Shown: piece after piece, positions 11,056 through 57,941 of the stretch | Layout: each line of letters opens with the position of its first letter | Numbering within the stretch: the stretch's first letter is position 1 | Origin: a virus | IMG/VR virus record: IMGVR_UViG_3300042197_004429 | Location: 64,001 to 128,000 of that record | Direction: 5' to 3' (one strand) | DNA length: 64,000 nucleotides | Position numbers and translations under genes: made by a program | The notes under the pieces: generated by a model | What the model saw: the letters and a program-made list of their open reading frames with translations, nothing else | Databases searched by the model: none | Told to the model about the DNA's origin: nothing

Positions 11056-11439
11056 ATGAAAAGTTTTAATGAATATAAATCAGGAAATAACCTGGGTTCT
11101 TTTTTTGGAAAATCATTCGCTGTAAGACAAAATGCTCATATTTTGCACCTATCTTCCAAAAGTTACGCTGAACATAAGGCTTTAGGCTCATTTTATGAAC
11201 AACTAACAGATCTTATGGATCAACTGATTGAAACATATCAAGGTCAATATGGCTTGGTTGAAGTTGATGTATCTACTTCAAAAGAAAAGAATGCAATTTC
11301 TCTTTTGAATGATTTTGCTGAAGAAGCAATGAATTCTCGTGATTTGTTTGATAAAAAAGACACTCATTTACATAATATTTTAGATGAAATATTGAGTTTA
11401 ACTTACCAAACTCTTTATAAATTAAAATTTCTCAAATAA
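11056..11439 (+). CDS. Ferritin/Dps-like four-helix protein (DUF5856-like)
   Basis: AHILHL...YAEHKALGSFYEQLTDLMDQLIETYQGQYG pattern; MKSFNEY N-terminus. Confidence 0.65.
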   Translation: MKSFNEYKSGNNLGSFFGKSFAVRQNAHILHLSSKSYAEHKALGSFYEQLTDLMDQLIETYQGQYGLVEVDVSTSKEKNAISLLNDFAEEAMNSRDLFDKKDTHLHNILDEILSLTYQTLYKLKFLK

Positions 11440-41458: not shown

Positions 41459-42058
41459 ATGAAGACGATGACTAAGGGTGGTTTTGGTGTTCAGTTTCAG
41501 CAAATTGAGCAGATTCAGCAAGAGGCTCGTGAAAAGTTTCAAGAGTACCAGCGATCTCTCAAGGAAGCTCAGGTTGCTTTGAGAAAGTTGGCCGAGGTTG
41601 CATCGGAAACTTGTGATCACGTTGGAGAGGGAGTTGATTTTGCCACCATGGCCCCGGTGAAGCGGCGGAAAGTCCGTCCAGCAAAGGCCAAGGCCACTGT
41701 GGTCAAGAATGGTCGCAGAAAGTCACGCAAAATTGGTGCTAAGACCAAGACCCGTGTACGTGCTGCTGCCGCCAATGGCGAGAACAAGATCAGCCTGAAG
41801 CGTTATACTTTTGAATTGCTTGGTCGTCCTGCGGCTAGCATCAAAAAGGCGATCTCAGGCTATCCTGAGAGTGGTAAGGGTCTAAAGGTCAGCGAGATCA
41901 AGGAGATCATCGAGAACGAAGGCAAGTGGAGTACCGATAGCGAGATCGGACCTCAAATCCACAACGCCTTGTTTGCTCTACGCAATGCCAAGAAGGTTGA
42001 GCGTAACGAAGAAGATCGTCGCTACCACCTTGTTGAAGGTGCCGAATACGACGCCTGA
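41459..42058 (+). CDS. Basic putative DNA-binding protein (coiled coil, K/R/A-rich linker, winged-helix-like C-terminus)
   Basis: APVKRRKVRPAKAKATVVKNGRRKSRK linker; GLKVSEIKEII...IHNALFALR..KKVER...YHL; higher GC than neighbours. Confidence 0.6.
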   Translation: MKTMTKGGFGVQFQQIEQIQQEAREKFQEYQRSLKEAQVALRKLAEVASETCDHVGEGVDFATMAPVKRRKVRPAKAKATVVKNGRRKSRKIGAKTKTRVRAAAANGENKISLKRYTFELLGRPAASIKKAISGYPESGKGLKVSEIKEIIENEGKWSTDSEIGPQIHNALFALRNAKKVERNEEDRRYHLVEGAEYDA

Positions 42059-42090
42059 TAATTGTTCCAAAAAATACAATTATTCGAGGG

Positions 42091-42119
42091 AAAAGCCCAA
42101 CCTTGTGTTGGGCTTTTTT
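42091..42119 (+). terminator. Intrinsic terminator
   Basis: AAAAGCCCAAC-CTTGT-GTTGGGCTTTT(TT). Confidence 0.85.
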
Positions 42120-42149
42120 CTTTTTGTACCCCAGTTACTAAAGTATTTT

Positions 42150-42974
42150 ATGATCAATGCTCAAGAATCACTTCCAAAAATTAGTTGCTTAATGGTCACA
42201 GCAAATAATCGTTTTGATTATTTTAAAAAAAGTGTGCAGTGTTATGCTGATCAGACTTATCCAAACCGTGAATTGGTTATAGTAACTGAAGCTCCAAAAG
42301 ATTATCAAAAAAAGATTAAAGATTACCTATCAGGGAGGGATGATGTTCATTTTATTTTTTTAAATGGATGGTATTCTTTAGGTGCATTGAGAAATATCTC
42401 TATGTCTTTGTGTTATGGAGATGTTTTTGTTCAATGGGACGATGACGATTTTAACTCCCCAGAAAGACTCGCTGTACAATACAGTTATTTATCTAGACAT
42501 CCAAAAGCACGTGTTTGTTTTTTGTCTGATCAATTACATTACTATTTTAATTCTGGTTATTTATTTTGGGAAGATTGGGCACAATATTGTTCAAATGGCA
42601 TTAAAAAATGTAGTTTAATTCCGGGAACGATCATGGCCTACAGGAGACATTTTCATAATAAATACCCATCTTCTGGAAGTTATTGTTCTGCTGGCGAAGA
42701 CTCTGTTTTAACCACAACTCTATGTGAAAATGATATTGATAATGACCAAGTGGTTTTGATGTCTAACTATGGATATATGCAAATGTATACATTTCATGGC
42801 AATAATGTTTGGGACGAAGAACATCATTTGAAAATATCAAAAAATAGATCCCTACCCGTGAGTTATATTAACAGGCATAGGCAAAGAATCTGCGAAACAA
42901 TAAATTATTTGGAACTTGAAGGAACAATAAAAGTCATGGGTCGAGAGGGCTTGGCTTTTACACATGAGGTTTAA
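42150..42974 (+). CDS. GT2 glycosyltransferase
   Basis: ISCLMVT, Q.YPN.ELVIV, LGALRN, QWDDDD, GED; start set at ATG 42150. Confidence 0.9.
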   Translation: MINAQESLPKISCLMVTANNRFDYFKKSVQCYADQTYPNRELVIVTEAPKDYQKKIKDYLSGRDDVHFIFLNGWYSLGALRNISMSLCYGDVFVQWDDDDFNSPERLAVQYSYLSRHPKARVCFLSDQLHYYFNSGYLFWEDWAQYCSNGIKKCSLIPGTIMAYRRHFHNKYPSSGSYCSAGEDSVLTTTLCENDIDNDQVVLMSNYGYMQMYTFHGNNVWDEEHHLKISKNRSLPVSYINRHRQRICETINYLELEGTIKVMGREGLAFTHEV

Positions 42975-42976
42975 AA

Positions 42977-43795
42977 ATGATTTCGGGAAAATTGCCATTA
43001 ATTTCTTGTGTTTGTGTTACTAAAGATCGTTTTGAATTACTTAAAAAATCAATTTTTTGTTATTTAAATCAAAATTATCAAAATAAAAATTTAATTATAT
43101 TGAGTCAAAGCAATGATGAAACAAATAAAAAAATAGAAAAACATATCAAAGATTTATCAAGAGATGACATTCTTTTTCTACCCGCTCCCACCATGTTGAC
43201 ATTGGGGGCCATGAGAAACGCATCCATCGAGTTGGCCACAGGTGAAATAATTTGTCAGTGGGATGATGATGATTTATATCATCCTAATAGATTGACAAAT
43301 CAATACAAATGCTTAAAGAGCGACAATAGGAATGTTGCTTCTTTGTATTCAAATTTTTTAAAGTATTTTGCCAATTCAAAAGAAGTGTATTGGTGCGATT
43401 GGTTGAACGAATCAGAGTATTCTCATAGATTTCTGTGCGGCTCTGTGATGTTTTACAAATCTCTTTTTCATATGTGGGAAAATTTTTACCCAGAGCGTGG
43501 TGCTCAGAGTTGTTGCGAAGAAGATCTAAATGTTCTTGAGAAGTTGATGTTAAAAGGGTCCATAGCACCAGTTTTGGATGGAAATGAGTATGTTTATGTT
43601 TACCACGGTGTTAACACTTACGATTTAGATCACCACAAATTAACTTTGGATATTCGTTGGGGTAAAAAAGTCTACACTACCGAAGATTTATTGAAAAAGC
43701 AAAGTTTAATCGAAGAAACTTTTGATTTGATACAAATGGATGATATGGTTAAAATTAAAAGTTTAGGAGAGGTTGCTTTCACTTACACCATATGA
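42977..43795 (+). CDS. GT2 glycosyltransferase (tandem paralog)
   Basis: ISCVCVT, LGAMRN, QWDDDDLYHPNRL, EED. Confidence 0.9.
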   Translation: MISGKLPLISCVCVTKDRFELLKKSIFCYLNQNYQNKNLIILSQSNDETNKKIEKHIKDLSRDDILFLPAPTMLTLGAMRNASIELATGEIICQWDDDDLYHPNRLTNQYKCLKSDNRNVASLYSNFLKYFANSKEVYWCDWLNESEYSHRFLCGSVMFYKSLFHMWENFYPERGAQSCCEEDLNVLEKLMLKGSIAPVLDGNEYVYVYHGVNTYDLDHHKLTLDIRWGKKVYTTEDLLKKQSLIEETFDLIQMDDMVKIKSLGEVAFTYTI

Positions 43796-44814
43796 AATTT
43801 GAACAAAAATATCAAAACTCTTCATCAAATGAGAGATTTGAATTTGAATATTCTTACGTGACCAAAAGTCCAAAACTAGGACAATGCCGTTGGTGTTCTT
43901 CTTTTACAAAGTGGATAGATGTCCTTTTTCAAGTTCATGTTTGTAGTGAAGAGTGCAACGCTGAGATGTGGCACCGCTATAGGAATGATCAAAAATTAAA
44001 TGGTACTTATGAAAATTTTGAAAATCATTTTGAACAAGTAAAAAAAGAATTGAAATTAGTAGAGGAAACCACAGATGATTGGAAAGATATATTGATCGTT
44101 GTTCGTGATCAACTTGATTACATTAAAGATTGTGTTGAATCGATACAAAAATACACAAAAAATTATCACTTATTTATTTGGGACAACGCATCTGGCAAAG
44201 AGACTCAAGAATATATACAAAATTTATTGTTAAAGTACGATTCAAATAAAGATAAACATTATAAATTAACAACAATAAGACGAGAGAAAAATGTTGGATT
44301 TGTGTTTCCAAATAATGAGATGATCGCTCTCGGAGAAAGTCCTTACATCATCCTGCTAAATTCGGATACTAAGGTTTTTGAAAATTGGGACAAAACCATG
44401 ATAGCATTTTTAAAAAACAACCCCGATTATGCCCAGGTTGGTTATTGGGGAGGACACCTTAACGCTGATGGTCGTGGGTTTGGCGGGGCTAATGGAGAGC
44501 GTGTTGACTATATCCCAGGTTGGTGTTTTTGCATATCACGTGAAACCTACGATCATTTTGGTTTGTTTGATGAACATCTTAAATTTGCTTATTGCGAAGA
44601 TTCTGATTTTTCTTTGAGACTCAAAGAAGGTGGAAAAAAGATTTATTCGCTTCATGCTCCACTTGTTCATCACTATCAAAACAAAACAGTAAAACAGGTT
44701 GAAAAAGAAGGCGAATTAGATCTTCAAGCAACTTTTGACCACAATCATTCCTACTTTAAAAATCGTTGGAAAGAATATTTGGCTAAAAATCGAGTTCTTT
44801 TGGATCAAAAATAA
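43792..44814 (+). CDS. GT2 glycosyltransferase with Cys-containing N-terminal extension
   Basis: CRWC...CSEEC; WDNAS, NVGFVFPNN, LLNSDT, YCEDSDFSLR. Confidence 0.85.
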   Translation: MKFEQKYQNSSSNERFEFEYSYVTKSPKLGQCRWCSSFTKWIDVLFQVHVCSEECNAEMWHRYRNDQKLNGTYENFENHFEQVKKELKLVEETTDDWKDILIVVRDQLDYIKDCVESIQKYTKNYHLFIWDNASGKETQEYIQNLLLKYDSNKDKHYKLTTIRREKNVGFVFPNNEMIALGESPYIILLNSDTKVFENWDKTMIAFLKNNPDYAQVGYWGGHLNADGRGFGGANGERVDYIPGWCFCISRETYDHFGLFDEHLKFAYCEDSDFSLRLKEGGKKIYSLHAPLVHHYQNKTVKQVEKEGELDLQATFDHNHSYFKNRWKEYLAKNRVLLDQK

Positions 44815-44871: not shown

Positions 44872-46188
44872 ATGAGTGAAACTTTCAAGGAAAATAAAAT
44901 GAGTGCGTGCTGTTTTTGCGGACAAACCAAGAAGATGACCGGTCCTTTGGTTCAAGGAAACGGTCTTGGAGACGAACACCCTGTCTACATTTGTTATAGT
45001 TGTATTAAAAGTTGCGAAGAGGCACTTGCTGAAAAAATTTCAAGCATGCGATCAGAGGACTTAAAAAAATTAAATGTTCCAAGTCCTTTAGAATTGTATC
45101 AACACCTCAATCGTTATGTAATCGGTCAAGATGTTGCCAAAAAGAAACTATCAGTTGAGGTCAGTAACCACTATCAAAGACTAATAGATAGTTACGAATT
45201 AAAATCTTTTAAAAACTCTGGCGAGTGTTCTATAGAAGACCCAGAACTTAAAGATGTTGAGATTGAAAAAAACAACATCCTTCTTGTTGGACCAACGGGT
45301 AGTGGCAAAACTTTATTGGCAAAAAGTCTGGCTGAAAAACTTAATGTTCCTTTTGCAATTGGTGATGCTACAACACTCACCGAGGCTGGTTATGTTGGAG
45401 AAGATGTTGAGAATTTGCTTTTAAAACTTTTAGTCGCAGCAGACTATAACGTTGAGGAAGCACAAAGAGGCATTATTTATATCGATGAAATTGATAAAAT
45501 TCGATCTACTGGTGGAAATGTTTCTATCACAAGAGATGTGAGCGGACAAGGTGTTCAGCAAAGTCTTCTTAAAATGATAGAAGGAACAGTTTGTAATGTT
45601 CCGCCTCAAGGGGGTCGTAAACACCCAGAGCAGAATTACATTCAAATTGACACAACGCACATCTTGTTTATTGTTGGTGGCGCTTTCGTTGGTTTAGAAG
45701 ACATTATTCGTCGTCGTTTAAGAAAGACTGCTATTGGTTTTAATGTTGAAAATCAGGTTGTTGATGAAAGAAAAGAATACAACGATGTGATGAAGCAAGT
45801 TCGCCAAGATGATTTTATTGAGTTTGGCATGATACCTGAATTAATTGGTAGGCTTCCCGTGATTAGTTCTTTAGAAGAACTCTCTGTGGACGATTTGGTT
45901 CGTGTTTTAAAAGAGCCCAAAAACGCCCTGCTGAAACAGGAGCGGAAGAAGATGTCTTACAAGGGCGTTGATCTCCAATTCACCGATGAAGCCGTCACAA
46001 AAATTGCGGAGATCGCTATTGAAAAAGAAATTGGAGCACGGGCTTTAAGAAGTGTTCTTGGCGAATTCATGACAGACCTTTACTTTGATCTTTCAGATGA
46101 CTGTTCTGGAAAGTCCTATCTGGTCGATGTTGATGTTGTTTTGAATAAAAAGAAGCCCGAGTTGATGAGCAAAAACGAAGCCGCTTAG
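44872..46188 (+). CDS. clpX: ATP-dependent Clp protease ATPase subunit ClpX
   Basis: N-terminal C4 zinc finger; VIGQ; GPTGSGKT; TEAGYVGEDVE; IDEIDKI; RDVSGQGVQQ; IGF loop; PELIGRLP; GARAL. Confidence 0.97.
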   Translation: MSETFKENKMSACCFCGQTKKMTGPLVQGNGLGDEHPVYICYSCIKSCEEALAEKISSMRSEDLKKLNVPSPLELYQHLNRYVIGQDVAKKKLSVEVSNHYQRLIDSYELKSFKNSGECSIEDPELKDVEIEKNNILLVGPTGSGKTLLAKSLAEKLNVPFAIGDATTLTEAGYVGEDVENLLLKLLVAADYNVEEAQRGIIYIDEIDKIRSTGGNVSITRDVSGQGVQQSLLKMIEGTVCNVPPQGGRKHPEQNYIQIDTTHILFIVGGAFVGLEDIIRRRLRKTAIGFNVENQVVDERKEYNDVMKQVRQDDFIEFGMIPELIGRLPVISSLEELSVDDLVRVLKEPKNALLKQERKKMSYKGVDLQFTDEAVTKIAEIAIEKEIGARALRSVLGEFMTDLYFDLSDDCSGKSYLVDVDVVLNKKKPELMSKNEAA

Positions 46189-46467
46189 TCATAGATTATT
46201 CAAATAATCAACCTCTTCTTGTGTTAAATCATCAATATTTATTTGATTTTTAATTTTAGATAAAATTTGATGTGCTATTGTTGTAGAGTGATCCGCTAAG
46301 TTTAACTCAATTTCGATGTTTTCAATTTTTTGAGTATAATTTTTATAGAAAGATATTATTTTTTCTTTTTTGTCTTTTGAATAATAACCAATAGCAACAA
46401 ATAATGATGCCACAATAGTTGTTGTGGTTAACAATTCGAGAAGAGAAGTTCCTTTGCGTCCTTGCAT
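46189..46467 (-). CDS. Type IV pilin-like small protein
   Basis: MQGRKG|TSLLELL prepilin-like N-terminus followed by a hydrophobic helix. Confidence 0.55.
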   Translation of the reverse strand: MQGRKGTSLLELLTTTTIVASLFVAIGYYSKDKKEKIISFYKNYTQKIENIEIELNLADHSTTIAHQILSKIKNQINIDDLTQEEVDYLNNL

Positions 46468-46542: not shown

Positions 46543-46899
46543 ATGGCCGATTTTTTTTGTTATGGCACTTTGAAAAAGGGATTTAGCGCCCACAGAATAT
46601 TAAAAAATGCCCCAGCCGCTTTTTTAGGCGAAGTAACTACAAATGAAGATTATCATTTGTATGATGTTGGAAGTTTTCCCGGCATGGTTTTTGATTCAAC
46701 AACAAAAGGCGGCGTTAAGGGAGAGTTGTATAAAATTCCAGAGCGTGCTTTTAATGACTTGGATCGTTACGAATGTGTGAACACAGGTCTTTTTCGTCGT
46801 GAGGAAATAATTTTACAAGATGGCAACAAAGCCTATGCTTACATATTTAATTCTAATCTAGACAATGCAATTAAAATCGAAGATGGCTTGTGGAAATAA
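46543..46899 (+). CDS. Gamma-glutamylcyclotransferase (AIG2-like)
   Basis: FFCYGTL, FPG, V.GELY, LDRYE, Y/FRR. Confidence 0.9.
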   Translation: MADFFCYGTLKKGFSAHRILKNAPAAFLGEVTTNEDYHLYDVGSFPGMVFDSTTKGGVKGELYKIPERAFNDLDRYECVNTGLFRREEIILQDGNKAYAYIFNSNLDNAIKIEDGLWK

Positions 46900-46932: not shown

Positions 46933-47994
46933 ATGTGGGGCGATGCTTTTTGTGCTTTTCCATTTAATAGACTAAGAATAACATCCGAAGGTAACGCTTC
47001 TTTTTGTTGTTTTATGAGACCTGATCCTCTTAAAGAAGAGGCAGATGCTTATATTGGCAATGTTTTAGAAAACACTTTTGATGAGGTTTGGTTTGGAGAA
47101 ATTGCCGAAGAAATAAGACACGAAACCCTAAAGGGCAATTTGCACAAAAAGTGCCAATGCCCAGGTTGTCCTTATTTGCCTCTTAAAAAACCATACCCGA
47201 TCCAGAACTTTATCTACAACGAGTATCCTAATTTTCTAGAAATAGACCTACCGAATACTCATTGTAATGTTGGTGGGTTAAAACCTCACCCAGAAAACTC
47301 ACCAGCATGCGTGATGTGCGAGCGTTCAAGTCCAGTTTTTCGTCCAGAGAAAAATCATCTTTTTGAAGTTCTTGAAAAGATTAAACACATCGTTCCTAAT
47401 CTCTATCAGATACACATTCAGGGAATAGCAGAACCTTTCTATCAAACAAGACAAGATGGCTTTTTTTTGTTTGAGATTATGGATATTTTGGAATATGACA
47501 ACCACGCCGAACAAATTACTTTGAGCATCACCACTAATGGAACTTTGCTAAAACAAAATGTACGTGAGCAGTATCTTAGGCGTGCCCCAAACTCTATAAC
47601 AAATTTTTCAATAGATGCCGCTACACCAGAAACTTTTAAGGCTATAAGAATATTTGATTGTTTTGATAAAGTTTTGGAAAATATGTACGCTTTTGACCAA
47701 GAGCGTGTTCGTGAGAAGCAGTTTCTGCGTATCCACAATAATATTAACATAATGAACGTGCATGAGGTTGTTGAGATGTGTCGAATTGCACACAAGGCAA
47801 GGGCAGAACACGTTGAATTTAATCCAACAAATGGATTTAATCACAAAATTTTAGTTAATGAAAAAAATTGTGGTTTATTTGCTAAAGCCCAACAAGATAT
47901 TATCGAAGAGTGCAAGAAACTAGGACAGCCGGTTAACTTTTTGCGTCCTTTAGATTTGGGCTACACCGAACGACTAATACAGTTGACTATATAG
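46933..47994 (+). CDS. Radical SAM protein with N-terminal SPASM/twitch domain, CX14CX2C
   Basis: FCAFPF...CC...IGN...W...C.CPGCP; HCNVGGLKPHPENSPACVMC; GIAEPF; TTNG; SIDAAT. Confidence 0.85.
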   Translation: MWGDAFCAFPFNRLRITSEGNASFCCFMRPDPLKEEADAYIGNVLENTFDEVWFGEIAEEIRHETLKGNLHKKCQCPGCPYLPLKKPYPIQNFIYNEYPNFLEIDLPNTHCNVGGLKPHPENSPACVMCERSSPVFRPEKNHLFEVLEKIKHIVPNLYQIHIQGIAEPFYQTRQDGFFLFEIMDILEYDNHAEQITLSITTNGTLLKQNVREQYLRRAPNSITNFSIDAATPETFKAIRIFDCFDKVLENMYAFDQERVREKQFLRIHNNINIMNVHEVVEMCRIAHKARAEHVEFNPTNGFNHKILVNEKNCGLFAKAQQDIIEECKKLGQPVNFLRPLDLGYTERLIQLTI

Positions 47995-49081
47995 TTAATT
48001 GTATCAAATCGCTACCGACTACTTGTTCAAATTCTCTCACCATTTTAATGGGCATGTTTATTTCTTTTGCTTTTGCTTTTTGAGAATTTTCTAAAAAAAT
48101 GGAAATGTTATCTTTAGTTACCATTATATCTTGTATGGTTTTTTCTGAAGTTAAAGATCCACAATCGTGGGTGGGATTAAATTGAATTTCATTAAAATTA
48201 TTATCTTTAGCAAAGACCACCATGTCTTCCATTTCTTTCACGTTTAAAGTATTTATGTTGTTATACATTATACTTCGGTGATTTTCTCCTTTTGTTTTGT
48301 TATATAAGTTCAGATTTTTTTGAATTATTTCAAAAAAATCTCTCCTCCTGATTGCTTTATAAGTTTCCTTTGTGGCAGCATCTATTGAAAAATAAATAAA
48401 TGATTTTTTTACTATTTCTAGATATTTTTTTTGTAAAAATTCATTAAAAATAGAACCGTTACTATATGTCCAAAAATTAATATTATTTTGATATTTTTTA
48501 AATTCTATTTCTTCAAAAATTTCAAAAATCAAGTCCTTATAAAAAGGCTCGGCCACACCCAAAACAGAAAACAAAATTAAATTTGGGACAATACATTTTA
48601 TTGATTCTATAATTTTTTTTGTATTATTCAATTTGAAATTTTCGCTTTTTCGAAAAACATCAAAATTTCTGGGGCACATTATGCAAGCTTGATTTTTATC
48701 ATTTGGATTTTCTCCGCCTATGTTGCAATGTGTTGGCGGCAAATCTATCTCTAAAGATATTGGATGATTTTCTAAAAAAACTACTTTTTGATTGTTTTCT
48801 TTTAAATTTTTATTTAGATAAGGACACCCTCCCCATTCTTGACAGTTACTGTGCAACTCTCCATTTAAAGTTTTTTTTCTTATTTCTTTTGAAATACTAT
48901 TGTTCCATATTTCTATGATGTTGTCTTTAAAAACATTGCCTAGAAATTTTTCTTGATAACAACACATTGTCACATCGCCTGTGACGTTTATTTTTACGTG
49001 TCTAAACGGCATTTCACAAAAACTGTAGATTATGTGTTTTTTATTTTTAAAGTTGGGGTTTTGATCTTGATGTTTAAGCAT
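47987..49081 (-). CDS. Radical SAM protein with N-terminal SPASM/twitch domain, CX13CX2C
   Basis: FCEMPF...CC; HCNIGGENPNDKNQACIMC; GVAEPF; SNGS; SIDAAT; start set at ATG 49081. Confidence 0.85.
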   Translation of the reverse strand: MLKHQDQNPNFKNKKHIIYSFCEMPFRHVKINVTGDVTMCCYQEKFLGNVFKDNIIEIWNNSISKEIRKKTLNGELHSNCQEWGGCPYLNKNLKENNQKVVFLENHPISLEIDLPPTHCNIGGENPNDKNQACIMCPRNFDVFRKSENFKLNNTKKIIESIKCIVPNLILFSVLGVAEPFYKDLIFEIFEEIEFKKYQNNINFWTYSNGSIFNEFLQKKYLEIVKKSFIYFSIDAATKETYKAIRRRDFFEIIQKNLNLYNKTKGENHRSIMYNNINTLNVKEMEDMVVFAKDNNFNEIQFNPTHDCGSLTSEKTIQDIMVTKDNISIFLENSQKAKAKEINMPIKMVREFEQVVGSDLIQLTI

Positions 49082-49103
49082 TTTAATAATTCTAAATAAA
49101 TTT

Positions 49104-50042
49104 ATGTTAAATATTTGCAATGAAAACAATAAACATGTCATTTATCATTGGTGGAATGATAATATTAATATTAAACCATATGAAGATTTAAGAAATCCCG
49201 TGGTCTTATCTATTGCCACACTTAGATCTTTTCATAAAAAAATTCCGATTACGATTTTAGATGTTAGTGATTTTGAAAGACCAAAAGAAGATTGGGTTGA
49301 ATTTCAAAAAGCGTTAAATTTTCAAGTTGTAAAAACCAAAACAAGTATTGACACCTCGTCTCCAAGATATTGGAAAGTCTGTTCTAAGGTATCAGATATT
49401 TCTAAAAATATTCAATTTTTAAAAGAGGATAATATAATTTTTGTAGACTCCGATATTTTTTTTGTTAAACCTATTTTGCCTTTATCGTATGAAGATCACC
49501 TCGTTGATAAATTTTGTTGCTTACCTTACAACACCGGATTTTTTTATTTTAATCATAAATTAGAAAAAAATCAAAAAGTGCTTGAAATTTGGAACGAGAC
49601 AATAGTTGAAGCTTTAAAAAATGAAAACTTTTATGAAGAACTTCACAAAGTGATACCATATTATCCTTCTAAGAGTTTACATGATGAAATTTGTATGCAT
49701 TATTTGTTTAAACAAAAAAAGATAAATAATATAAAAAAATTAGATTTTGATGAAAGTTTTATATTTTCACAAGAACATATTTTTCTTGCAAACTACGGTA
49801 AATTTGATAATTTTGAGTTAATATTTAAAAAAATAAAATTTATACACGCTATTACCGCTTTTAATGGCAATAAAAGAGGAATTTTATGTTTATTGATTAA
49901 GGAGATAAATGATTTGATCAATAAATCTTTAAACAAGCGTTTGATCAAAAAAATATTTAGACACGAAATGCCCTTACCTTCTTATTGTATGTCGTCTATA
50001 ATGAGAATGACAAACAAGCAATTTAATTGTCTACTTAATTAA
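49104..50042 (+). CDS. GT-A glycosyltransferase-like protein; paralog of 11432-12373
   Basis: IYHWW, SIATLRS, FVDSDIFF, YNTGFFYF, HDE. Confidence 0.65.
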   Translation: MLNICNENNKHVIYHWWNDNINIKPYEDLRNPVVLSIATLRSFHKKIPITILDVSDFERPKEDWVEFQKALNFQVVKTKTSIDTSSPRYWKVCSKVSDISKNIQFLKEDNIIFVDSDIFFVKPILPLSYEDHLVDKFCCLPYNTGFFYFNHKLEKNQKVLEIWNETIVEALKNENFYEELHKVIPYYPSKSLHDEICMHYLFKQKKINNIKKLDFDESFIFSQEHIFLANYGKFDNFELIFKKIKFIHAITAFNGNKRGILCLLIKEINDLINKSLNKRLIKKIFRHEMPLPSYCMSSIMRMTNKQFNCLLN

Positions 50043-51553
50043 TCATCTAAAGGAATTGAAATTAATTCTATTTCCTTATCCTTAAAATCCGACAGGGCAT
50101 CGTTATAGGTGTTACATATAGGTTTTCCCGGACCATTTAAACTTGTATTTATTAAGCACTCGCTCCCGGTCATTTTTCCATATTCGACAAGTAATTCATG
50201 TAACCAAGGATCTTTATTTTTATTCACAACCTGAGGTCTGCTGCTGTTGTCTTTGTGTACTATGGCCGGACACTCGGTTTGTGCTGCAAGGGTGCATTCA
50301 CACTTGAATTGCATGTATTCTCCCTTTGGTCCAATAAAGTATCGATCAAAACTCTCTTCTGTGACCATCGGAGCAAGTGGGCGATAATATTCTCTTCCTT
50401 TTAGATCTTGTGAAACACGTTTCAAATTTTGGTATTTACTAGCGTTTGCCAAAATGGATCTAAATCCTAAAGCCCTAGGCCCGCACTCAGCTTTTCCACG
50501 AAGTAAGCCGACCACTTTATCTTGCGCAATTAATTTTGCTATTTCTTTTGGCTCTTGAACCCCAGTTTTCGGCAAAGGCTCTTGAAGATACATAATTGAA
50601 GGAGTGTTCAAAGCTGGTGGCCATCTTCCTTTATCTAGAAAATAACCATAGCACGCTGCACCTAAAGCCAATCCGCTATCATTCACAGGCGGTCCAAAAA
50701 CAAAGTCTTTTGTAAGATTTGATATATTTGTATTTAATTCAAGTGCCAAACATGTTCCGCCACCAACTACTATGCCTAATTCTTTGTTGGGTGTAAAATT
50801 TTGTAAGTTTATTAGAATTTTTTCCCAAGTAAAATCCATCCATAATTTATATAATTTAGCCGATAATATCATGTCATTTTTACTAATATTTTTATTTTTA
50901 TTGAAATTAGGAACATCTAAGGGCCAAACTTTTTCAAAAATTGAGTAAATCAAACTTGAAACCTCACTGTTTTTAAATGAACCTAAATCTTCATTTAAAA
51001 ACCCAACGAGACCCATTGTTTTTCCAGCAGTGTCTCCTCCCAACAAATTTCCAACAATCCCGCTTGTTGGTATCTTTGGTTCTAGAACTTTTAAAGAAAA
51101 ACCATCTTCACCAATAAATCCCCCCAAACAAGAAGATGTCTCCCCATTTGCTGTTGATCCAGACCCATCATAGGCCATACAAAATCTTGTGTCATCATTT
51201 TCTCTAAATGACCAAGAACTCAAAATATGACATAAATGATGGTTTATGCAAAAATTTGGAAAATAATCACTCGGCAGATGGGAGCCTATACTCGTATCCG
51301 ACCACTTTGTTGCTATTATTGGATTAATCCAATAATTTATTGGGTTTGGGTTATTAAAAAAAGAAGGAAGACAAATGATGTCTTTTTTTTGAGGTTTTGG
51401 TAAAAATTTTAAAATGGGATTAATGTTATTGTAATACTTTTGTTTACTAAACCGAGATACTTCGGCATAGAACTCTAGTTCGCCATTTTCATTCAAAACA
51501 ACTGCCCCGAGGTCGTGGTTATAGGGATTTATACCAAAATATTTTTTTGTCAT
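50039..51553 (-). CDS. O-carbamoyltransferase (NodU/CmcH family)
   Basis: NHD, NHHLCH, YDGSG, GKTMGL, GGG, GPRALGFRSIL, GREYYRP, VHKDNSSRPQ, INTSLN. Confidence 0.9.
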   Translation of the reverse strand: MTKKYFGINPYNHDLGAVVLNENGELEFYAEVSRFSKQKYYNNINPILKFLPKPQKKDIICLPSFFNNPNPINYWINPIIATKWSDTSIGSHLPSDYFPNFCINHHLCHILSSWSFRENDDTRFCMAYDGSGSTANGETSSCLGGFIGEDGFSLKVLEPKIPTSGIVGNLLGGDTAGKTMGLVGFLNEDLGSFKNSEVSSLIYSIFEKVWPLDVPNFNKNKNISKNDMILSAKLYKLWMDFTWEKILINLQNFTPNKELGIVVGGGTCLALELNTNISNLTKDFVFGPPVNDSGLALGAACYGYFLDKGRWPPALNTPSIMYLQEPLPKTGVQEPKEIAKLIAQDKVVGLLRGKAECGPRALGFRSILANASKYQNLKRVSQDLKGREYYRPLAPMVTEESFDRYFIGPKGEYMQFKCECTLAAQTECPAIVHKDNSSRPQVVNKNKDPWLHELLVEYGKMTGSECLINTSLNGPGKPICNTYNDALSDFKDKEIELISIPLDD

Positions 51554-51597
51554 AATTAAAATCTCAATAAACAAATTTATAAATTATATATAATCTT

Positions 51598-52662
51598 ATG
51601 GCTATAATTAAATCTTTTTGTAATCTTCCTTGGACCAGAATGAAGATTCACTACAATGGTGATGTTTCTATGTGTTGTCATCAATCTTATTTTAGATTGG
51701 GAAATATATTAGAAGAAGATTGGGATAAAATATGGTTTGGTTCAAAAGCAAAAGAAATTAGAGAAACAACTTTGAAAAATCAACTACATGATAATTGTAA
51801 AAAACCTGAGTGTCCTTTCTTCAACGCAGACTTAAACAAAACACGGTTATTCGACATAAACGATAACGAATACCCATCAGAAATAGAATTTGATCTTCAT
51901 GCTTCTCATTGTAATTTTGGAGGTAAAAAAGCTGATCCTGAAAATACATGTATTATGTGTCCCAGATCCTATCCGGAGGTCGCTCAATCTCTAGGCTTAA
52001 TAAAAGATAATGCAAATATTATAGTTGAAAAAATTAAACCCATTTTACCGCATATCAATAGTTTGGCTGTCATGGGATTGGCAGAAATTTTTTGGCAAAA
52101 CAAAATATTTGAAATTTTTGATTTGTTGTCTTTTAAAGATTATAATAATAAAATTTCTTTTTGGGCCAATACGAATGGATCAGTATTTGACCAAAAATCC
52201 GCAGAAAAATTTTCTGATTATGTTCGAAAAAGTGTTATTTGTTTTTCAATTGACGCCTCTAACAAAGAAACTTATCTTAAGATAAGAAAAAATAATGTTT
52301 TTGATAAAGTAATAAGTAATCTTAAAAACTGGAATAAAATTAGAAAAAATTTAAACAAACTAGGAGACGACCATCAACTTTCTATTTACAATAATATAAA
52401 TCTACTAAATGTAAATGAAGTCTCTGACATGGTGGTAATGGCCAAGGAACTTGAAGTCGATGCAATTTATTTAACTCTTACCCATAATGTTGGTAATTTG
52501 CAAAATTTGAATACTCTTGTAATCAATAGTAAGAATTGGCGAATTTTCAGTGAAGCCGAGGAACGGGCAAGAAAAATTGGCGAACAGTTGAATTTCAAAG
52601 TTCACATTTGCAGACCTTTCGATGCAGGTTTTTCACAAAAACTTTATAATATAAGTTTTTAA
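51598..52662 (+). CDS. Radical SAM protein with N-terminal SPASM/twitch domain, CX12CX2C
   Basis: FCNLPW...CC; HCNFGGKKADPENTCIMC; GLAE; NTNGS; SIDAS. Confidence 0.85.
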   Translation: MAIIKSFCNLPWTRMKIHYNGDVSMCCHQSYFRLGNILEEDWDKIWFGSKAKEIRETTLKNQLHDNCKKPECPFFNADLNKTRLFDINDNEYPSEIEFDLHASHCNFGGKKADPENTCIMCPRSYPEVAQSLGLIKDNANIIVEKIKPILPHINSLAVMGLAEIFWQNKIFEIFDLLSFKDYNNKISFWANTNGSVFDQKSAEKFSDYVRKSVICFSIDASNKETYLKIRKNNVFDKVISNLKNWNKIRKNLNKLGDDHQLSIYNNINLLNVNEVSDMVVMAKELEVDAIYLTLTHNVGNLQNLNTLVINSKNWRIFSEAEERARKIGEQLNFKVHICRPFDAGFSQKLYNISF

Positions 52663-54197
52663 TAGACTCTACTATTGAAATTTTTACAGAATTTACTGGC
52701 TTGTTCAGGTATTGAGATTAAATCTAATTCTTTTCCATCCATATCGCTCACAGCATGCTCATAAGTATTACAAATAGGTTTTCCTGCTCTATTTAATGAT
52801 GTGTTTATGAAACATTGATGACCTGTAATTTTCCCATACTCTGTGAGAATTTCATGTAACCAAGGATCTTTTTCTTTGTAAACAACTTGCGGCCTTGAAG
52901 ATAGATCACGATGCACAATTGCAGGCAAATGTTCTTGACATTCTTTTGTACATTCACACCGATACTGCATGTATTCTCCCTTCGGTCCAATAAAGTATTT
53001 GTTAAACTCTTCATTTGTTACTATGGGTGCAACGGGCCTATAGAACTCTCGTCCTTTTATCGTCTCAGAAACTATTTTTAAATTTTCGTATTTTGTTGCC
53101 GATGCAAAAATTGAACGAAAACCCAAAGCACGAGGCCCAGCCTCGCTTTTTCCACGAAGTAATCCCACCACTTTATCTTGCGCAATTAATTTTGCTATTT
53201 CTTTTGGCTCTTGTGGGCCTTTTTGAGGCAAAGATTTATGAATATCATTAATTGCTGGCGTGCTTATCTTATTGGGCCAACTTTTATTCGCATGAAAATA
53301 ACCAAAGACAGCCGCCCCCAAACACAACCCGGTATCATTTATTGGTGGGCAAAAAACCACATCATCTGTGTATTTGGTAACCCTGGTGTTTAATTCTAAA
53401 GCGAGTGCTGTTCCTCCGCTTAATACAATTCCACGATTTTGTTTGTATTTTTCAATATTTTGTTTTAATTTTTCCCAAATTTCTTCAATAATAAATTTAT
53501 AAAAACCTGATATGAATTCCAAATCTGATTGGGATGGGTTATTAAAATGAGGAAAACATGGATCAAAATTATAATAATTCATTGTAGAATTTATTAACTT
53601 TAAAAAGTTTTCTTTGTTAAATTCTAATTTGTTTGGAATAAAACCCGACAGTCCCATTGCTTTTCCAGGTGTGTTGACTCCAAGCAAGTGAGACACGGGT
53701 ATACTTGTTGGAATTGCTATTGATTCGTCAAATTTTTTGAATTCATTTTGATTTATTAATCCTACCAAAGAAGATTTTAAAGGTTTTGAAAAATCTGCCG
53801 TTGGCCCACAGCCGTCAAAAGATATAAATAGTCTTTCGTTATCATTGGGTCTATAAAGCCAAGATGCAAAAGTATGTGCTAAATGATGATCTAAAACAAA
53901 ATGCAAGCTATTTCTACCATGTCCACCAAAAGGATTAGATTTTAATTGTCTAACCAACGTTTCATCGTATCCATCCACAGTAAAAGATTCTTCAAGTGCA
54001 TAAGTCGATGTAAAAATATATTCTTCGTTAATATCCAGAAGATGCGGGAAAGAGGCTAAAATTGGTCCAATGTTATTTGCCATGCATTTAAATCTTGGTT
54101 CATATCTTTCACTTTGTGCATAAAATTCTAAATCTCCATTTTCATCAATTATTGCAATTGATGAATCGTGACCCATATGATAGCCTACATATTTCAT
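52659..54197 (-). CDS. O-carbamoyltransferase (NodU/CmcH family)
   Basis: GHDSS, DHHLAH, FDGCG, GKAMGL, SGG, GPRALGFRSI, GREFYRP, VHRDLSSRPQ, INTSLN. Confidence 0.9.
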   Translation of the reverse strand: MKYVGYHMGHDSSIAIIDENGDLEFYAQSERYEPRFKCMANNIGPILASFPHLLDINEEYIFTSTYALEESFTVDGYDETLVRQLKSNPFGGHGRNSLHFVLDHHLAHTFASWLYRPNDNERLFISFDGCGPTADFSKPLKSSLVGLINQNEFKKFDESIAIPTSIPVSHLLGVNTPGKAMGLSGFIPNKLEFNKENFLKLINSTMNYYNFDPCFPHFNNPSQSDLEFISGFYKFIIEEIWEKLKQNIEKYKQNRGIVLSGGTALALELNTRVTKYTDDVVFCPPINDTGLCLGAAVFGYFHANKSWPNKISTPAINDIHKSLPQKGPQEPKEIAKLIAQDKVVGLLRGKSEAGPRALGFRSIFASATKYENLKIVSETIKGREFYRPVAPIVTNEEFNKYFIGPKGEYMQYRCECTKECQEHLPAIVHRDLSSRPQVVYKEKDPWLHEILTEYGKITGHQCFINTSLNRAGKPICNTYEHAVSDMDGKELDLISIPEQASKFCKNFNSRVY

Positions 54198-54272
54198 TTT
54201 TGCCTCACAAATCTTATATTTTATAAATGATTTTGAGTTTATTTTTTAATTGCACGTTATAATAAATAAAAT

Positions 54273-55394
54273 ATGTTAAAAACGTCCCACACAATCGAGT
54301 CTTTTTGTTCTTATCCTTTCACCAGACTAAAGTTTACTCCAGAGGGCGATGTTACCATGTGTTGTTTTCAAACTAGAAAGTGTTTGGGCAATATATTAGA
54401 AAAATCTCTTGAGCAAATTTGGTTTAGCGATTTGGCTAAAAAAATCAGATCAGAGACCGAGAAAGGCCGTCTTCATCGATTATGTGCCAACAATGTTTGT
54501 CCATTTTTTTACGACACAGACAAAAAAAACTTTGAATTTAATGCTTGTTCGTATCCCATCGAGTTTGAAATTGATCTTCCTACACAACATTGCAATATTG
54601 GCGGTGAAAATCCTAGCGCTAAAAATCCTGCTTGTATAATGTGCGAAAGAAATATGCCTTCATTCAAGCATCAAAAAGATTATTTAAATGAAATATGTAA
54701 AAAATTAAAGCCATATACAAGATATTTAAAAGCATTACATATACAAGGAATTGCTGAGTCTTTTTGGAAAGATAGAATTTTTGAAATTATAAATATTCTC
54801 GGTGTTGAAACTTATAAAAGAAAAATTCGTATTTCAACAACAACAAATGGAACTCTTATGAGCGAAAAAAGATCAAAAAGGTTTTTAGACTTTCCTCTTT
54901 CAACTATAGTGTGGTCTTTAGATGCATCTACTCCAGAAACTTATAAAAAAATAAGACAAGTAGACATGTATAATAAAATAATTGAAAATCTCAAATTCTA
55001 CGCAAAAGAAAGAGATCCTTGCAATCAATTTTTGCATATTCACAATACTATAAACACCATTAATTTAGATGAAGTTGTTGGCATGGTAGAGATTGCTGCT
55101 GAAGTCGGAGTTAATTGCTTAGAATTTAATGCTACTTATGGTGGTCTTGATATTTGTGTAAACAAAAATAATTTTCTTTTATTTAAAGATGCTCAAAATA
55201 AAATTATAGAAATTTCTCAAAAACTTGGAGTTTATACAATTTTTATGCGTGATTTATACTTGGATTTTGATTCTAATATTGAAAATAATCTTATTCAACT
55301 ACAGGTTACAAAAAAAGATGATAATCAAAGCCTTCCAGATTATTTAAAACCAATAGATATTAATTTGTCACCAGACGGACAACTATTTGATTAA
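54273..55394 (+). CDS. Radical SAM protein with N-terminal SPASM/twitch domain, CX13CX2C
   Basis: FCSYPF...CC; HCNIGGENPSAKNPACIMC; GIAE; TTNG; SLDAST. Confidence 0.85.
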   Translation: MLKTSHTIESFCSYPFTRLKFTPEGDVTMCCFQTRKCLGNILEKSLEQIWFSDLAKKIRSETEKGRLHRLCANNVCPFFYDTDKKNFEFNACSYPIEFEIDLPTQHCNIGGENPSAKNPACIMCERNMPSFKHQKDYLNEICKKLKPYTRYLKALHIQGIAESFWKDRIFEIINILGVETYKRKIRISTTTNGTLMSEKRSKRFLDFPLSTIVWSLDASTPETYKKIRQVDMYNKIIENLKFYAKERDPCNQFLHIHNTINTINLDEVVGMVEIAAEVGVNCLEFNATYGGLDICVNKNNFLLFKDAQNKIIEISQKLGVYTIFMRDLYLDFDSNIENNLIQLQVTKKDDNQSLPDYLKPIDINLSPDGQLFD

Positions 55395-55734: not shown

Positions 55735-56059
55735 GTGCAAAAATTTTGCTTTTCAATCAAGCCATACACTCAAGGAAGTTTGTGGTTTTTTGACGATTTA
55801 AAAAATGGACTTGTCAAAGAACCCCTGACCGATGGTGTGCCACAGGTCATAACTAGGGCTTGCCAAAAAAAAATCATTAAATCAAAATATCCAAATACAT
55901 TTTTCAAATTTTGAATTTAGTGAATTTGTTCTTGATTTTCGAAAGCCACTTAGAAACGGAAATGTTTACCACTGGAAAAAAGAAGGTTTAACGTGTTGGT
56001 TTTGCCCAGCATTATTTAAATATTTTGTTGTTGCTCCTAAAAAATCTGGTTTTTTCTAA
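55735..56059 (+). pseudogene. Frameshifted DUF6717-like gene
   Basis: GGAGG RBS and GTG start; IKPY...WFFDD...GLVKEP..DGVP in one frame, FS...WFCPALFKYF...P in another; break at the A9 tract 55865-55873. Confidence 0.65.
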
Positions 56060-56090
56060 ACCAAACAAAAAACTAAAATCAAAATCAGAT

Positions 56091-56119
56091 TTGCTGATTA
56101 TATTATATTTTGGTATATT
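56091..56119 (+). promoter_or_regulatory. sigma70-type promoter
   Basis: TTGCTG (56091-56096), 17 nt, TATATT (56114-56119). Confidence 0.55.
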
Positions 56120-56122
56120 CCG

Positions 56123-56180
56123 GCCCGGTGGTGTGTACGATCTGGTTCAACTCCAGCCTCACATCATCGGGCTTTTTTTT
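56123..56180 (+). ncRNA. Putative T-loop minihelix small RNA or leader attenuator
   Basis: 13-bp stem GCCCGGTGGTGTG/CACATCATCGGGC enclosing CTGG-TTCAACT-CCAG (tRNA T-arm consensus), followed by T8. Confidence 0.5.
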
Positions 56181-56189
56181 GGAGATTTT

Positions 56190-57941
56190 ATGGAAAACCA
56201 ACAAGATGTACAGGCACACATTGAAAGAGAAGTTCAAAGAAAAACAAGTAGGCTTCTCATACAACACAATGAAGAAATTTCTGAACTAAAAAAAATTATT
56301 GAACAGTGCAAATCGGATTTGGTTCGTCAACATAACATAATATCCAAATTATCGTCCGAGCCTCTTGTTTATGGCTATTTACTTAAAGTCCACAAGTTAG
56401 TGGACCCTGCTTGTTTTAAAAATAATGATGAAATTATTGTCGTTGATGAAAATAGTCCTCATTTTCAAAAAGGTGGCAAAGTTATTCTTTCTTCAAGTTG
56501 GGATAGCGTTGTTGATCCGGACGGTAGTGTTTTAGTTAGATTATTGGACAACACAGAGGAAAGATTTTTTATAGGTTCAAAACAAGGCCAACCTGCACAA
56601 ATTCGTTTAACACAAAAAGCCGATGGAACATATGCCGTTGTGCAAATTGATGGCAAGCCGTGGGAGATACAAGGCTTGCCTTTTTTAGATCTTTGCGTAG
56701 GCGACTCAGTAAAAGTAAAACCTGACAACAAAGCCATAGTTGATAAAGCAGAGGATTTGCCCGCTGGTCCAATTTGCGTTGTGTCAACCGTTTTAGATCA
56801 AAATATAGAAGTTTTATACAAGGGCGATAAATTTTTAGTTTTCAATCCTAAAAACTTTACTTTAGAAGAGGGCGATAGAGTCCTAACCGACTATAATCTC
56901 TTTTCTGTTACAAAAAAACTCGAAAAAGAAAATCATTCTAAATATAAAATTTCAGAAGATTTGAATGTGAGTTGGGACGATGTTGGTGGGTTAGAAGTTG
57001 CAAAACAAGAATTAAAGAGTGCTTTAGAGTTTCCTTTTCTTTATCCTGATCTCTTTAAGCATTACAACATGGAAGGTTTGCGAGGAGTATTATTATACGG
57101 TCCTCCAGGTTGTGGTAAGACTCTTCTCGCAAGAGTTTGTGCTCATTCGATTGCAAAAACTCACGGAAAACAAGCAATAGACTCAGCGTACATTTATGTG
57201 AAATCACCAGAAATTTTAGATAAATGGGTCGGCAATACCGAAAGAGAAATTCGTGAATTGTTTGAACGTGGCAGAAGGCATTATCGTGAACATGGCTATA
57301 AGGCTATTCTTGCAATTGATGAAGCGGATGCAATTATGCCTCAGCGTGGCACACGCAGAAGTAGCGACATAGCCGATACTATAGTGCCAATGTTTTTAGG
57401 AGAAATGGACGGCATTGATAGCGTTCAAACAAAAGAGAATCCAATTGTCGTTTTGATGACTAATCGTGCCGATGTGTTGGACCCCGCTATTACTCGTCCG
57501 GGAAGAATTAGCCGTCATATCAAAATTGATAGACCAAACGAGATTACATCAATTGATATATTAAAAATTCACTCCGTTGAAGTTCCTTTTTCCAAAGAAG
57601 AAGAGAAAGAAGCGATCCTGACCATAACAACAGCCGACGTTTTTTCTAAAAATCATATCTTGTATAGAGTTAACAATGAACATGATTTTACACTTGGAAA
57701 TTGTGTTAACGGAGCCATGTTGTCGAATATTTTAGAAATCGCTAAAATGAATGCGTTGCATAGAGATATTGAAAACAACACAACTACCGGCGTGGATTTA
57801 GAAGACTTTCGCTTGGCGGTTAAAAAAGTTTATCGTCAACAAAGAGGATTAAATCACTCCTATGACTTACAAGACTTTGCTGAAAGTTTAGGAATTCAAC
57901 ATCAAAACATGCAAATTGAACGTTGCTTTGGATCTTTTTAA
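56190..57941 (+). CDS. ARC/Mpa-like (proteasome-type) AAA+ ATPase
   Basis: N-terminal coiled coil and OB-like region; VSWDDVGGL; VLLYGPPGCGKT; KSPEILDKWVGNTEREIRELF; IDEAD; LGEMDG; TNRADVLDPAITRPGR; start set at ATG 56190. Confidence 0.85.
   Translation: MENQQDVQAHIEREVQRKTSRLLIQHNEEISELKKIIEQCKSDLVRQHNIISKLSSEPLVYGYLLKVHKLVDPACFKNNDEIIVVDENSPHFQKGGKVILSSSWDSVVDPDGSVLVRLLDNTEERFFIGSKQGQPAQIRLTQKADGTYAVVQIDGKPWEIQGLPFLDLCVGDSVKVKPDNKAIVDKAEDLPAGPICVVSTVLDQNIEVLYKGDKFLVFNPKNFTLEEGDRVLTDYNLFSVTKKLEKENHSKYKISEDLNVSWDDVGGLEVAKQELKSALEFPFLYPDLFKHYNMEGLRGVLLYGPPGCGKTLLARVCAHSIAKTHGKQAIDSAYIYVKSPEILDKWVGNTEREIRELFERGRRHYREHGYKAILAIDEADAIMPQRGTRRSSDIADTIVPMFLGEMDGIDSVQTKENPIVVLMTNRADVLDPAITRPGRISRHIKIDRPNEITSIDILKIHSVEVPFSKEEEKEAILTITTADVFSKNHILYRVNNEHDFTLGNCVNGAMLSNILEIAKMNALHRDIENNTTTGVDLEDFRLAVKKVYRQQRGLNHSYDLQDFAESLGIQHQNMQIERCFGSF

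Follow-up and report, generated by a model that had tools for sequence, protein, structure and literature searches.

We analysed a 64,000-nucleotide stretch of viral DNA, hereafter the window, which comprises bases 64001-128000 of one linear 177,312-bp IMG/VR virus contig (IMGVR_UViG_3300042197_004429). It carries a cassette of seven genes, in which four paralogous radical S-adenosylmethionine (SAM) proteins, rS1 to rS4, are encoded together with one glycosyltransferase and two carbamoyltransferases. All seven open reading frames (ORFs) were verified at the coordinates and on the strands reported in an earlier note on this DNA. The radical SAM copies on the contig are the four of this array only:

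46933-47994, plus strand: rS1, radical SAM protein with an N-terminal twitch domain, CX14CX2C
47987-49141, minus strand: rS2, radical SAM protein with an N-terminal twitch domain, CX13CX2C
51598-52662, plus strand: rS3, radical SAM protein with an N-terminal twitch domain, CX12CX2C
54273-55394, plus strand: rS4, radical SAM protein with an N-terminal twitch domain, CX13CX2C; the paralog chosen for modelling

The contig has a CheckV completeness estimate of 74%. In a close relative, G002 (locus L013; a contig of 458,813 bp, estimated completeness 91%), the flank proteins are 94-97% identical to those of the window, and we therefore assign the lineage to the huge phages. The 177,312-bp contig is thus probably a fragment of a larger genome. 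Neither a megablast search with 10 kb of sequence nor a tblastn search with rS4 gave any match in the GenBank phage collection.

The four radical SAM proteins share 33-41% pairwise identity, and in each of them a Pfam SPASM domain at about residues 7-100 is followed by a Radical_SAM domain. SPASM exceeded its gathering score in all four paralogs (E values of 3.6e-10 for rS1, at residues 7-79, 2.3e-10 for rS2, 7.3e-13 for rS3 and 1.9e-11 for rS4), and Radical_SAM did so in three (1.7e-7 for rS1, 6.7e-9 for rS2 and 2.5e-8 for rS4), with rS3 staying under the threshold. Translation of rS2 probably starts some 18-20 codons after the ATG listed; its ortholog in L013 has 366 amino acids and is 94% identical. 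Among the PHROGs, no family was found for the radical SAM proteins, save one weak match of rS1.

Alignment of the paralogs revealed five invariant cysteines in the N-terminal domain (C7, C25, C26, C74 and C79 in rS1 numbering). The C7-x12-G20-x4-C25 arrangement of rS1 fits the CX9-15GX4C signature, and C74-x4-C79 is also present. The N-terminal Cys cluster claimed for all four paralogs was therefore confirmed by both Pfam and the alignment. Since five conserved cysteines suffice for one cluster, we class the domain as a twitch and not as a complete SPASM domain, which would have seven or eight cysteines; across the family, four or five are conserved. Such a Cys-rich auxiliary domain is characteristic of the SPASM/twitch subgroup (SFLD 17; RadicalSAM.org Megacluster-1-1), but there it is expected C-terminal to the barrel, and in the phage proteins it occupies residues 5-100 or so, ahead of the barrel. 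Some members of Megacluster-1-1, for which there are no structures, do have conserved cysteines N-terminal to the barrel (PMC9477430).

The segment that would hold the SAM cluster is equally well conserved. H110-C111-N112-x-G114-G115...C126-x-M128-C129 (rS1 numbering) is invariant in rS1 to rS4, and the first two cluster cysteines are separated by 14, 13, 12 and 13 residues, respectively, exactly as had been claimed. The three cysteines of the radical SAM superfamily are thus present, with non-canonical spacing, as C-x12-14-C-x2-C in all four paralogs and in 46/46 aligned sequences. In this larger alignment C107, N108, G110, C121, M123 and C124 (rS4 numbering) are invariant, as are a GGE-like G-(I/V)-A-E-P motif (G159/E162) and an S-x-D motif (S215/D217). 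Homologs of rS4 numbered 203, and the X12-14 spacing was found in every one of the 120 metagenomic homologs retrieved (X13 in 95, X12 in 16 and X14 in 9). The AlphaFold2 model of rS4 (predicted local distance difference test score, pLDDT, 89.4; predicted template modelling score, pTM, 0.85), the alignment and Pfam agree on a partial (beta/alpha)6 TIM barrel with SAM-binding motifs, as is typical of the superfamily.

We then compared the rS4 model with known structures. Radical SAM barrels were matched at Z 14-16 (Foldseek and VIA-align wide), and DUF512, SkfB, Mmp10, SuiB, BlsE, viperin, PFL-AE, NifB, anSME, MoaA, DesII and CteB were tied, so that these searches returned a generic radical SAM barrel with no specific functional neighbour among the tied matches. 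A phmmer search of rS4 against the PDB sequences gave only spurious matches to cystatins and was discarded in favour of a family profile. With this profile, the sole significant PDB match was to the twitch domain of BtrN, the butirosin 2-deoxy-scyllo-inosamine dehydrogenase (4M7S/4M7T), twitch to twitch (4M7S, E value of 4e-4), with four cysteines in corresponding positions. BtrN is a radical SAM enzyme with one auxiliary cluster that acts on a sugar-like substrate, and it may serve as a mechanistic model for an oxidation by the phage proteins. It differs from them in its C-terminal twitch domain and its canonical CX3CX2C motif; the barrels align at 1.7 bits, which is not significant, and BtrN is absent from the top structural matches of the rS4 model.

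The unusual spacing of the cluster motif turned out to be a variable feature. In the phage proteins the motif reads C-N-(I/V)-G-G-x8-10-C-(I/V)-M-C, the first cysteine standing at the end of strand beta1 in the context LEIDLPxxHC-N, and a loop of 9-11 residues (GGxxPxxxNPA) is inserted ahead of the C-x-M-C pair. A survey of loop variants, using representatives that scored 200-380 bits against the phage-family profile, uncovered a few X3 forms (CNTTCIMC, CNTACLMC and CNTACMMC) as well as X5 forms (CNINPPCIMC and similar) within the phage clade, all of which kept the LEIDLPxxHC-N context. Loop lengths across this clade are thus X3, X5 and X11-15, and the expanded motif does not hold as the fixed hallmark for which it had been taken. 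Judged from the alignments, a loop of variable length has been inserted here, as in QueE. The QueE precedent itself was cited correctly, since the Burkholderia multivorans enzyme has a CX14CX2C motif (PMC4389238), and other clusters of the radical SAM superfamily have X4-X11 loops (PMC9477430). QueE of B. multivorans nevertheless belongs to an unrelated subfamily with another barrel variant and without a twitch domain, and Bacillus subtilis QueE matched the rS4 model at only Z 10.7. None of the papers listed in a literature search dealt with a radical SAM protein that has an N-terminal twitch domain or a CX12CX2C or CX13CX2C motif.

A quick maximum-likelihood tree, with support from the Shimodaira-Hasegawa-like approximate likelihood ratio test (SH-aLRT) only, placed the phage-type family in one clade (SH-aLRT 96), apart from the NCBIfam family NF033640 and other canonical proteins with an N-terminal twitch domain. 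The paralogs rS1 to rS4 were spread over four subclades, each of which also contained orthologs from other huge-phage contigs; rS1 formed a subclade of its own (SH-aLRT 98), and rS3 grouped with a protein of a related locus (L001b) in an X12 subclade. The X3 and X5 forms were nested among the expanded ones, and the members from Bdellovibrionota made up a single subclade within the phage-type clade. From this tree and the series of X3, X5 and X11-15 loops we conclude that the duplications are old and that the position of the first cysteine is fixed while the loop length fluctuates.

One might suspect that the insertion breaks the cluster site, and that some copies are degenerate proteins that no longer cleave SAM and persist as structural or regulatory relics. 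The non-canonical motif and the low Radical_SAM score of rS3 would fit such a view. Nevertheless, the three cysteines and the GGE-like and S-x-D motifs are invariant in 46 diverse members, all 120 homologs retain the motif, every paralog has conserved orthologs, and QueE functions with CX14CX2C (PMC4389238). Degeneration is therefore highly improbable.

The closest catalogued relative of the phage proteins is NF033640 (N_Twi_rSAM, "twitch domain-containing radical SAM protein"), which was the top match for three paralogs and the joint-top match for rS4. The scores of rS1 to rS4 (78.4, 79.8, 71.2 and 63.8 bits) are below the cut-off of 170. The model matches the phage proteins in two stretches, profile positions 2-67 (twitch) and about 157-312 (barrel), in the same domain order, and an hhalign comparison of the two families extended over both domains (98.2%, E value of 3.8e-14, 270 columns) with the C-x-M-C ends aligned. 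In both families the twitch domain precedes the barrel, the motif has the same C-N...C-(V/I)-M-C ends, and the strand before it is equivalent (IDLPTQHC-N in the phage proteins, VDLRLGTKC-N in NF033640). In both families, moreover, paralogs stand side by side in the vicinity of GT2 genes, and no reaction is known for either. In contrast, true NF033640 proteins have the canonical CX3CX2C spacing, as C-N-L-K-C-(V/I)-M-C, which rS1 to rS4 (X12-14) lack; X3 was found in 26 of 27 NF033640-type ORFs examined, the motif scan being blank for L035:2938-4311. The phage proteins are also about 100 amino acids shorter (353-384 versus 400-480), lack an insert of about 22 amino acids in the twitch domain as well as other segments, fall in a separate clade of the tree, and come mainly from huge-phage contigs and one subclade of Bdellovibrionota. 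An undescribed radical SAM subfamily had been proposed in the earlier note. What stands is a coherent and experimentally undescribed clade; its N-terminal-twitch architecture is already curated as NF033640. As this family is itself uncharacterised, the refuting condition given in that note, a characterised family with the architecture, applies only by half.

Of 301 Bdellovibrionota genomes sampled, 78 had NF033640 proteins that scored above the cut-off, at 320-450 bits, with often at least five copies per genome, frequently side by side. Arrays of two to five adjacent paralogs were seen at loci L041-L048 (Bdellovibrionota genomes G165, G045, G278, G027, G252, G187 and G077), where two further uncharacterised radical SAM families, CNYKCSYC (about 380 amino acids) and CNA[AS]CPxC (about 365-425 amino acids), accompany them. 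The NF033640 arrays adjoin genes for GT2, the largest partner family, for a PMT_2 transferase of the GT-C type, for an FAD oxidoreductase and for DegT. At least one glycan gene (GT2, PMT_2 or DegT) was present in five of the eight regions examined.

Some relatives have additional segments. The expanded-loop members from Bdellovibrionales (L016/L047, L018, P0135, P0141, P0144 and P0145) carry an N-terminal extension of about 230-310 amino acids; neither the N-terminal extensions of the Bdellovibrionota members, about 270 amino acids long, nor the C-terminal extension of P0128 gave any Pfam, NCBIfam or Atlas match. Long proteins of 800-1900 amino acids proved to be tandem radical SAM/SPASM repeats, and metagenomic P0211, P0218, P0226 and P0228 (1200-1900 amino acids) consist of three or four such units, all CX3CX2C, with a weak CBM_6 match in one of the four.

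We next considered the genes around the radical SAM array. The other features of the cassette, its upstream flank and a separate glycan island are as follows:

49104-50042, plus strand: GT8-like retaining glycosyltransferase, GT-A fold, DxD motif D115/D117
50039-51574, minus strand: CT1, NodU/CmcH/TobZ-type O-carbamoyltransferase, Carbam_trans_C E value of 1.2e-48, Carbam_trans_N 2e-5
52659-54197, minus strand: CT2, NodU/CmcH/TobZ-type O-carbamoyltransferase, Carbam_trans_C E value of 4.2e-48, Carbam_trans_N 8e-4
41973-42974, 42977-43795 and 43792-44814, plus strand: three consecutive GT2 genes, upstream of the array
44872-46188, plus strand: ClpX-like ATPase, from Pfam, between the GT2 genes and the array
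46543-46899, plus strand: GGACT/AIG2-like cyclotransferase, from Pfam, between the GT2 genes and the array
12866-34410: glycan biosynthesis/tailoring island of about 20 kb, annotated by Pfam in L050, where the region is identical

The GT8-like protein had no Pfam, NCBIfam or PHROG match, and its assignment comes from the fold. Its AlphaFold2 model (pLDDT 86, pTM 0.90) matched the GT8 enzymes glycogenin, GlyE and LARGE1 in Foldseek (E value of 2.5e-8, probability 1.00), at an identity of 10-14% and a TM score of about 0.5. D115-x-D117 is invariant among its homologs, of which only six are known. GT-A fold and DxD motif thus place it with GT8 at the fold level only, without membership by a sequence hidden Markov model. 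A paralog with 32% identity is encoded at 11432-12373 on the minus strand.

CT1 and CT2 are 48% identical to each other and matched PHROG 1601, "Nol-like carbamoyltransferase", over their full length (E values of 2e-68 and 2e-74). Both combine a YrdC-like C-terminal domain with a Kae1-like N-terminal domain and retain the metal motifs HD(S/L)(S/G) and HHxxH of NodU/CmcH/TobZ enzymes, as HDLG and HHLCH in CT1 and HDSS and HHLAH in CT2. The Carbam_trans_N matches are weak, the N-terminal half being divergent, and the proteins fall far under the NodU equivalog cut-off (127 versus 1000 bits).

The GT2 assignment is based on Pfam Glycos_transf_2 for 43792-44814 and on PF00535 orthologs in L001, L049 and L053; the three genes are syntenic in all related huge-phage contigs. 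The ClpX-like and GGACT genes are likewise conserved syntenic neighbours of the array. Between them, on the minus strand, lies an ORF of 92 amino acids (46189-46467), 72% conserved in L013, whose N-terminus MQGRKGTSLLELLTTTTIVASLFV resembles the prepilin signal of type IV pilins and pseudopilins. A second AAA+ ATPase of the phage is encoded at 56025-57941, besides the ClpX-like unfoldase, which has a zinc finger. In the island at 12866-34410, the transferases include GT2, GT8, GT47 and CT0, a third and more distant carbamoyltransferase with Pfam and PHROG matches (22866-24410, minus strand), along with three methyltransferases, three sulfotransferase-family genes, DegT, WbqC, a hexapeptide acyltransferase and the dioxygenases PhyH and TauD. 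The island also encodes a leucine-rich repeat protein, and its repertoire resembles the glycosylation gene sets of giant viruses.

With three GT2 genes, a GT8-like transferase, O-carbamoyltransferases and the separate 20-kb island, the neighbourhood was indeed of the glycan type that had been described. The glycan genes beside the NF033640 arrays of Bdellovibrionota point the same way. We therefore favour, at evenly balanced confidence, the reading that the seven genes form a mosaic huge-phage cassette for glycan tailoring whose radical SAM proteins act on sugars, with substrate and chemistry inferred. Each of these proteins would bind a SAM-cleaving [4Fe-4S] cluster through C-x12-14-C-x2-C, by analogy with QueE and its CX14CX2C motif, and a second [4Fe-4S] cluster would sit in the twitch domain. 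The 5'-deoxyadenosyl radical could then take a hydrogen from a sugar residue, either in a nucleotide sugar or in a glycan made by the neighbouring transferases, and the twitch cluster could accept an electron as in BtrN. Overall, the sugar would be oxidised to a keto-sugar, epimerised or deoxygenated, and the four subclades may differ in regio- or substrate specificity. Afterwards, the carbamoyltransferases would cap hydroxyls with carbamoyl groups, a position that methyltransferases would take in other strains, and a glycan of the virion or the host envelope would thereby acquire a decoration that varies from strain to strain.

Several observations weigh against this reading. The glycan assignment is drawn from the gene neighbourhood only, and that the first cysteine ligates the cluster is deduced from its conservation and from the variants in loop length. 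The structural matches (SuiB, SkfB, anSME, MoaA, BlsE, viperin and DesII) are tied and non-specific, and characterised SPASM/twitch radical SAM enzymes mostly modify peptides or cofactors. No glycan gene was found among the annotated genes of three of the eight NF033640 regions, and the bacterial expanded-loop members (L047/L051 and L002) lie outside obvious glycan clusters. Finally, the genes between GT2 and the radical SAM array encode ClpX, GGACT and, in relatives, an M50 site-2 protease located between GT2 and ClpX, and a protein or peptide target would fit these as well.

Such a target forms an alternative of its own, in which the radical SAM proteins modify side chains of amino acids in a protein or peptide of the phage or its host, in the manner of anSME, a sactisynthase or an epimerase, and the glycosyltransferases and carbamoyltransferases either modify the same protein or are unrelated neighbours. 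Maturation of peptides or proteins is the role of most characterised SPASM/twitch enzymes, SuiB, SkfB, CteB and anSME are among the top structural matches, ClpX, the M50 protease and GGACT are conserved neighbours, and the GT8-like gene resembles the protein-glycosylating glycogenin and GlyE. However, the sugar- or nucleotide-acting BlsE, DesII and viperin tie with these matches, the bacterial sister family sits among GT2, DegT and PMT_2 genes, and neither an RRE/PqqD-like recognition domain nor, in the tightly packed cassette, a candidate precursor ORF was found. We regard modification of a protein or peptide as unlikely.

The likeness to BtrN also raises the question of a small molecule, since a BtrN-like twitch radical SAM protein, a BtrG-like GGACT, a TobZ-like carbamoyltransferase and, in the other island, a DegT aminotransferase together echo aminoglycoside pathways. 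The island would then make a diffusible aminoglycoside- or nucleoside-like metabolite and not a polymer decoration. This resemblance is at the superfamily level only, genes for a cyclitol or scaffold synthase, for an exporter or for resistance were not seen, and the three GT2 genes with GT47 and GT8 better fit polymer assembly. A small-molecule glycoside as product thus appears very improbable.

The radical SAM array is mosaic between close relatives. The order GT2(x2-3)-(M50)-ClpX-GGACT-radical SAM array recurs in L001, L011, L012, L013, L049 and L053, with a different array content each time. The constant member is rS1, which in relatives always comes first after GGACT and has orthologs with 61-99% identity in L013, L011, L001, L012 and L049. 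Relatives with 93-100% identical flanks lose rS2 and the GT8-like gene, swap carbamoyltransferases or have methyltransferases instead. In L013, rS1 and rS2 are 95% and 94% identical to those of the window, as compared to 61% for the GT8-like protein, 62% for the single carbamoyltransferase and 43% for the last radical SAM protein. At the rS1/rS2 junction of this locus, exactly, lies a LAGLIDADG homing endonuclease gene (L013:6695-7468, minus strand; Pfam E value of 5e-33) that is absent from the window and possibly drives local recombination. L049 has rS1 at 99% and rS4 at 100%, with CT1, rS3 and CT2 at 83-87%, and is cleanly missing the 2.0-kb segment with rS2 and the GT8-like gene (about 48000-50037 of the window) as one indel; between ClpX and GGACT, genes for an HODM-like oxidase and Nucleotid_trans take the place of the small ORF at 46189-46467.

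The pairing of radical SAM proteins with carbamoyltransferases, which had been put forward for this cassette, is not conserved in these relatives. In L053 the radical SAM genes alternate with opposite-strand methyltransferase genes in place of carbamoyltransferase genes, the array of L012 contains a weak sulfotransferase-like gene, and L001 has three radical SAM genes and no transferases in its array. An obligate pair is ruled out by these three arrays without carbamoyltransferases. Since the array content varies while rS1 stays constant, carbamoylation is one capping option among several. We tentatively suggest, with less than even confidence, that these are recombining serotype-like huge-phage cassettes in which specialised radical SAM proteins edit sugars of viral or host glycans and carbamoyl, methyl and sulfo caps are interchangeable.

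Hypervariability could instead come from an arms race with host restriction, in which the cassette, by radical chemistry and carbamoylation, decorates hydroxymethyl-pyrimidine or glycosylated bases of the phage DNA and modules are swapped accordingly. Phage carbamoyltransferases and radical SAM enzymes act in some pathways of base hypermodification, L001 and L053 each carry a Nuc_deoxyri_tr2 gene a few genes further downstream, and a DNA methylase is encoded nearby. Still, no pointer to glycosylated or hydroxymethylcytosine DNA, one of the targets suggested earlier, was found. The ThyA-family protein of the relative G003 has the dUMP-type Asn (SLWNP) and not the Asp of dCMP hydroxymethylases, and a TET/JBP search of G000, G002 and G003 was empty, with control genomes equally silent. 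Furthermore, the neighbours are GT2 and GT8 and, elsewhere, DegT, WbqC and sulfotransferases, not dNMP kinases or DNA transferases, and the bacterial sister family occurs in chromosomal glycan clusters. We thus see a slim chance that DNA is the target.

The novelty of the system had been overstated, since the architecture is curated, a structural counterpart of the variable loop is known, and some relatives of the cassette do without carbamoyltransferases. The new element is a clade of radical SAM proteins with an N-terminal twitch domain and an expanded loop, found mostly in huge phages, of which several anciently diverged paralogs share a tailoring cassette that recombines. Radical SAM proteins with this domain order form a large family without known reaction, massively expanded in Bdellovibrionota, and near-isogenic phages that differ by single radical SAM, glycosyltransferase or carbamoyltransferase modules are compact natural experiments. 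The module differences between these phages could tie each paralog to a chemical change, and the natural X3, X5 and X13 variants in one clade could reveal the role of the inserted loop. If a virion or host glycan is the target, complex giant-virus-like glycan tailoring with radical chemistry would extend to phages, and glycan diversification would be implicated as a driver of huge-phage genome mosaicism. It would also mean viral glycan editing by radical SAM enzymes and a first reaction for the N-terminal-twitch family, with chemistry possibly new for twitch enzymes. Were these ordinary tailoring enzymes of known type, about 200 unnamed metagenomic protein clusters would still gain a useful annotation.

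A few further observations concern the layout of the DNA. An intact TnpB/IS605 OrfB-type gene lies within the phage genome at 7097-8302 of the window on the minus strand (PHROG 506, E value of 1e-128; OrfB_IS605 and Cas12f-like TNB domain). Promoter-like sites in the cassette showed no excess over shuffled sequences (45 versus 43.6), and terminator-like sites numbered 11 versus 5.4 ± 2.7 in shuffles, a difference that is not decisive. The convergent gene pairs of the cassette end in overlapping palindromic stops at 47987-47994, 50039-50042 and 52659-52662, leaving no space for terminators between them. At the first of these, rS1 and rS2 share CTATATAG, and both proteins thus end in ...LTI; the GT8-like/CT1 and rS3/CT2 pairs share TTAA, with TAA on either strand.

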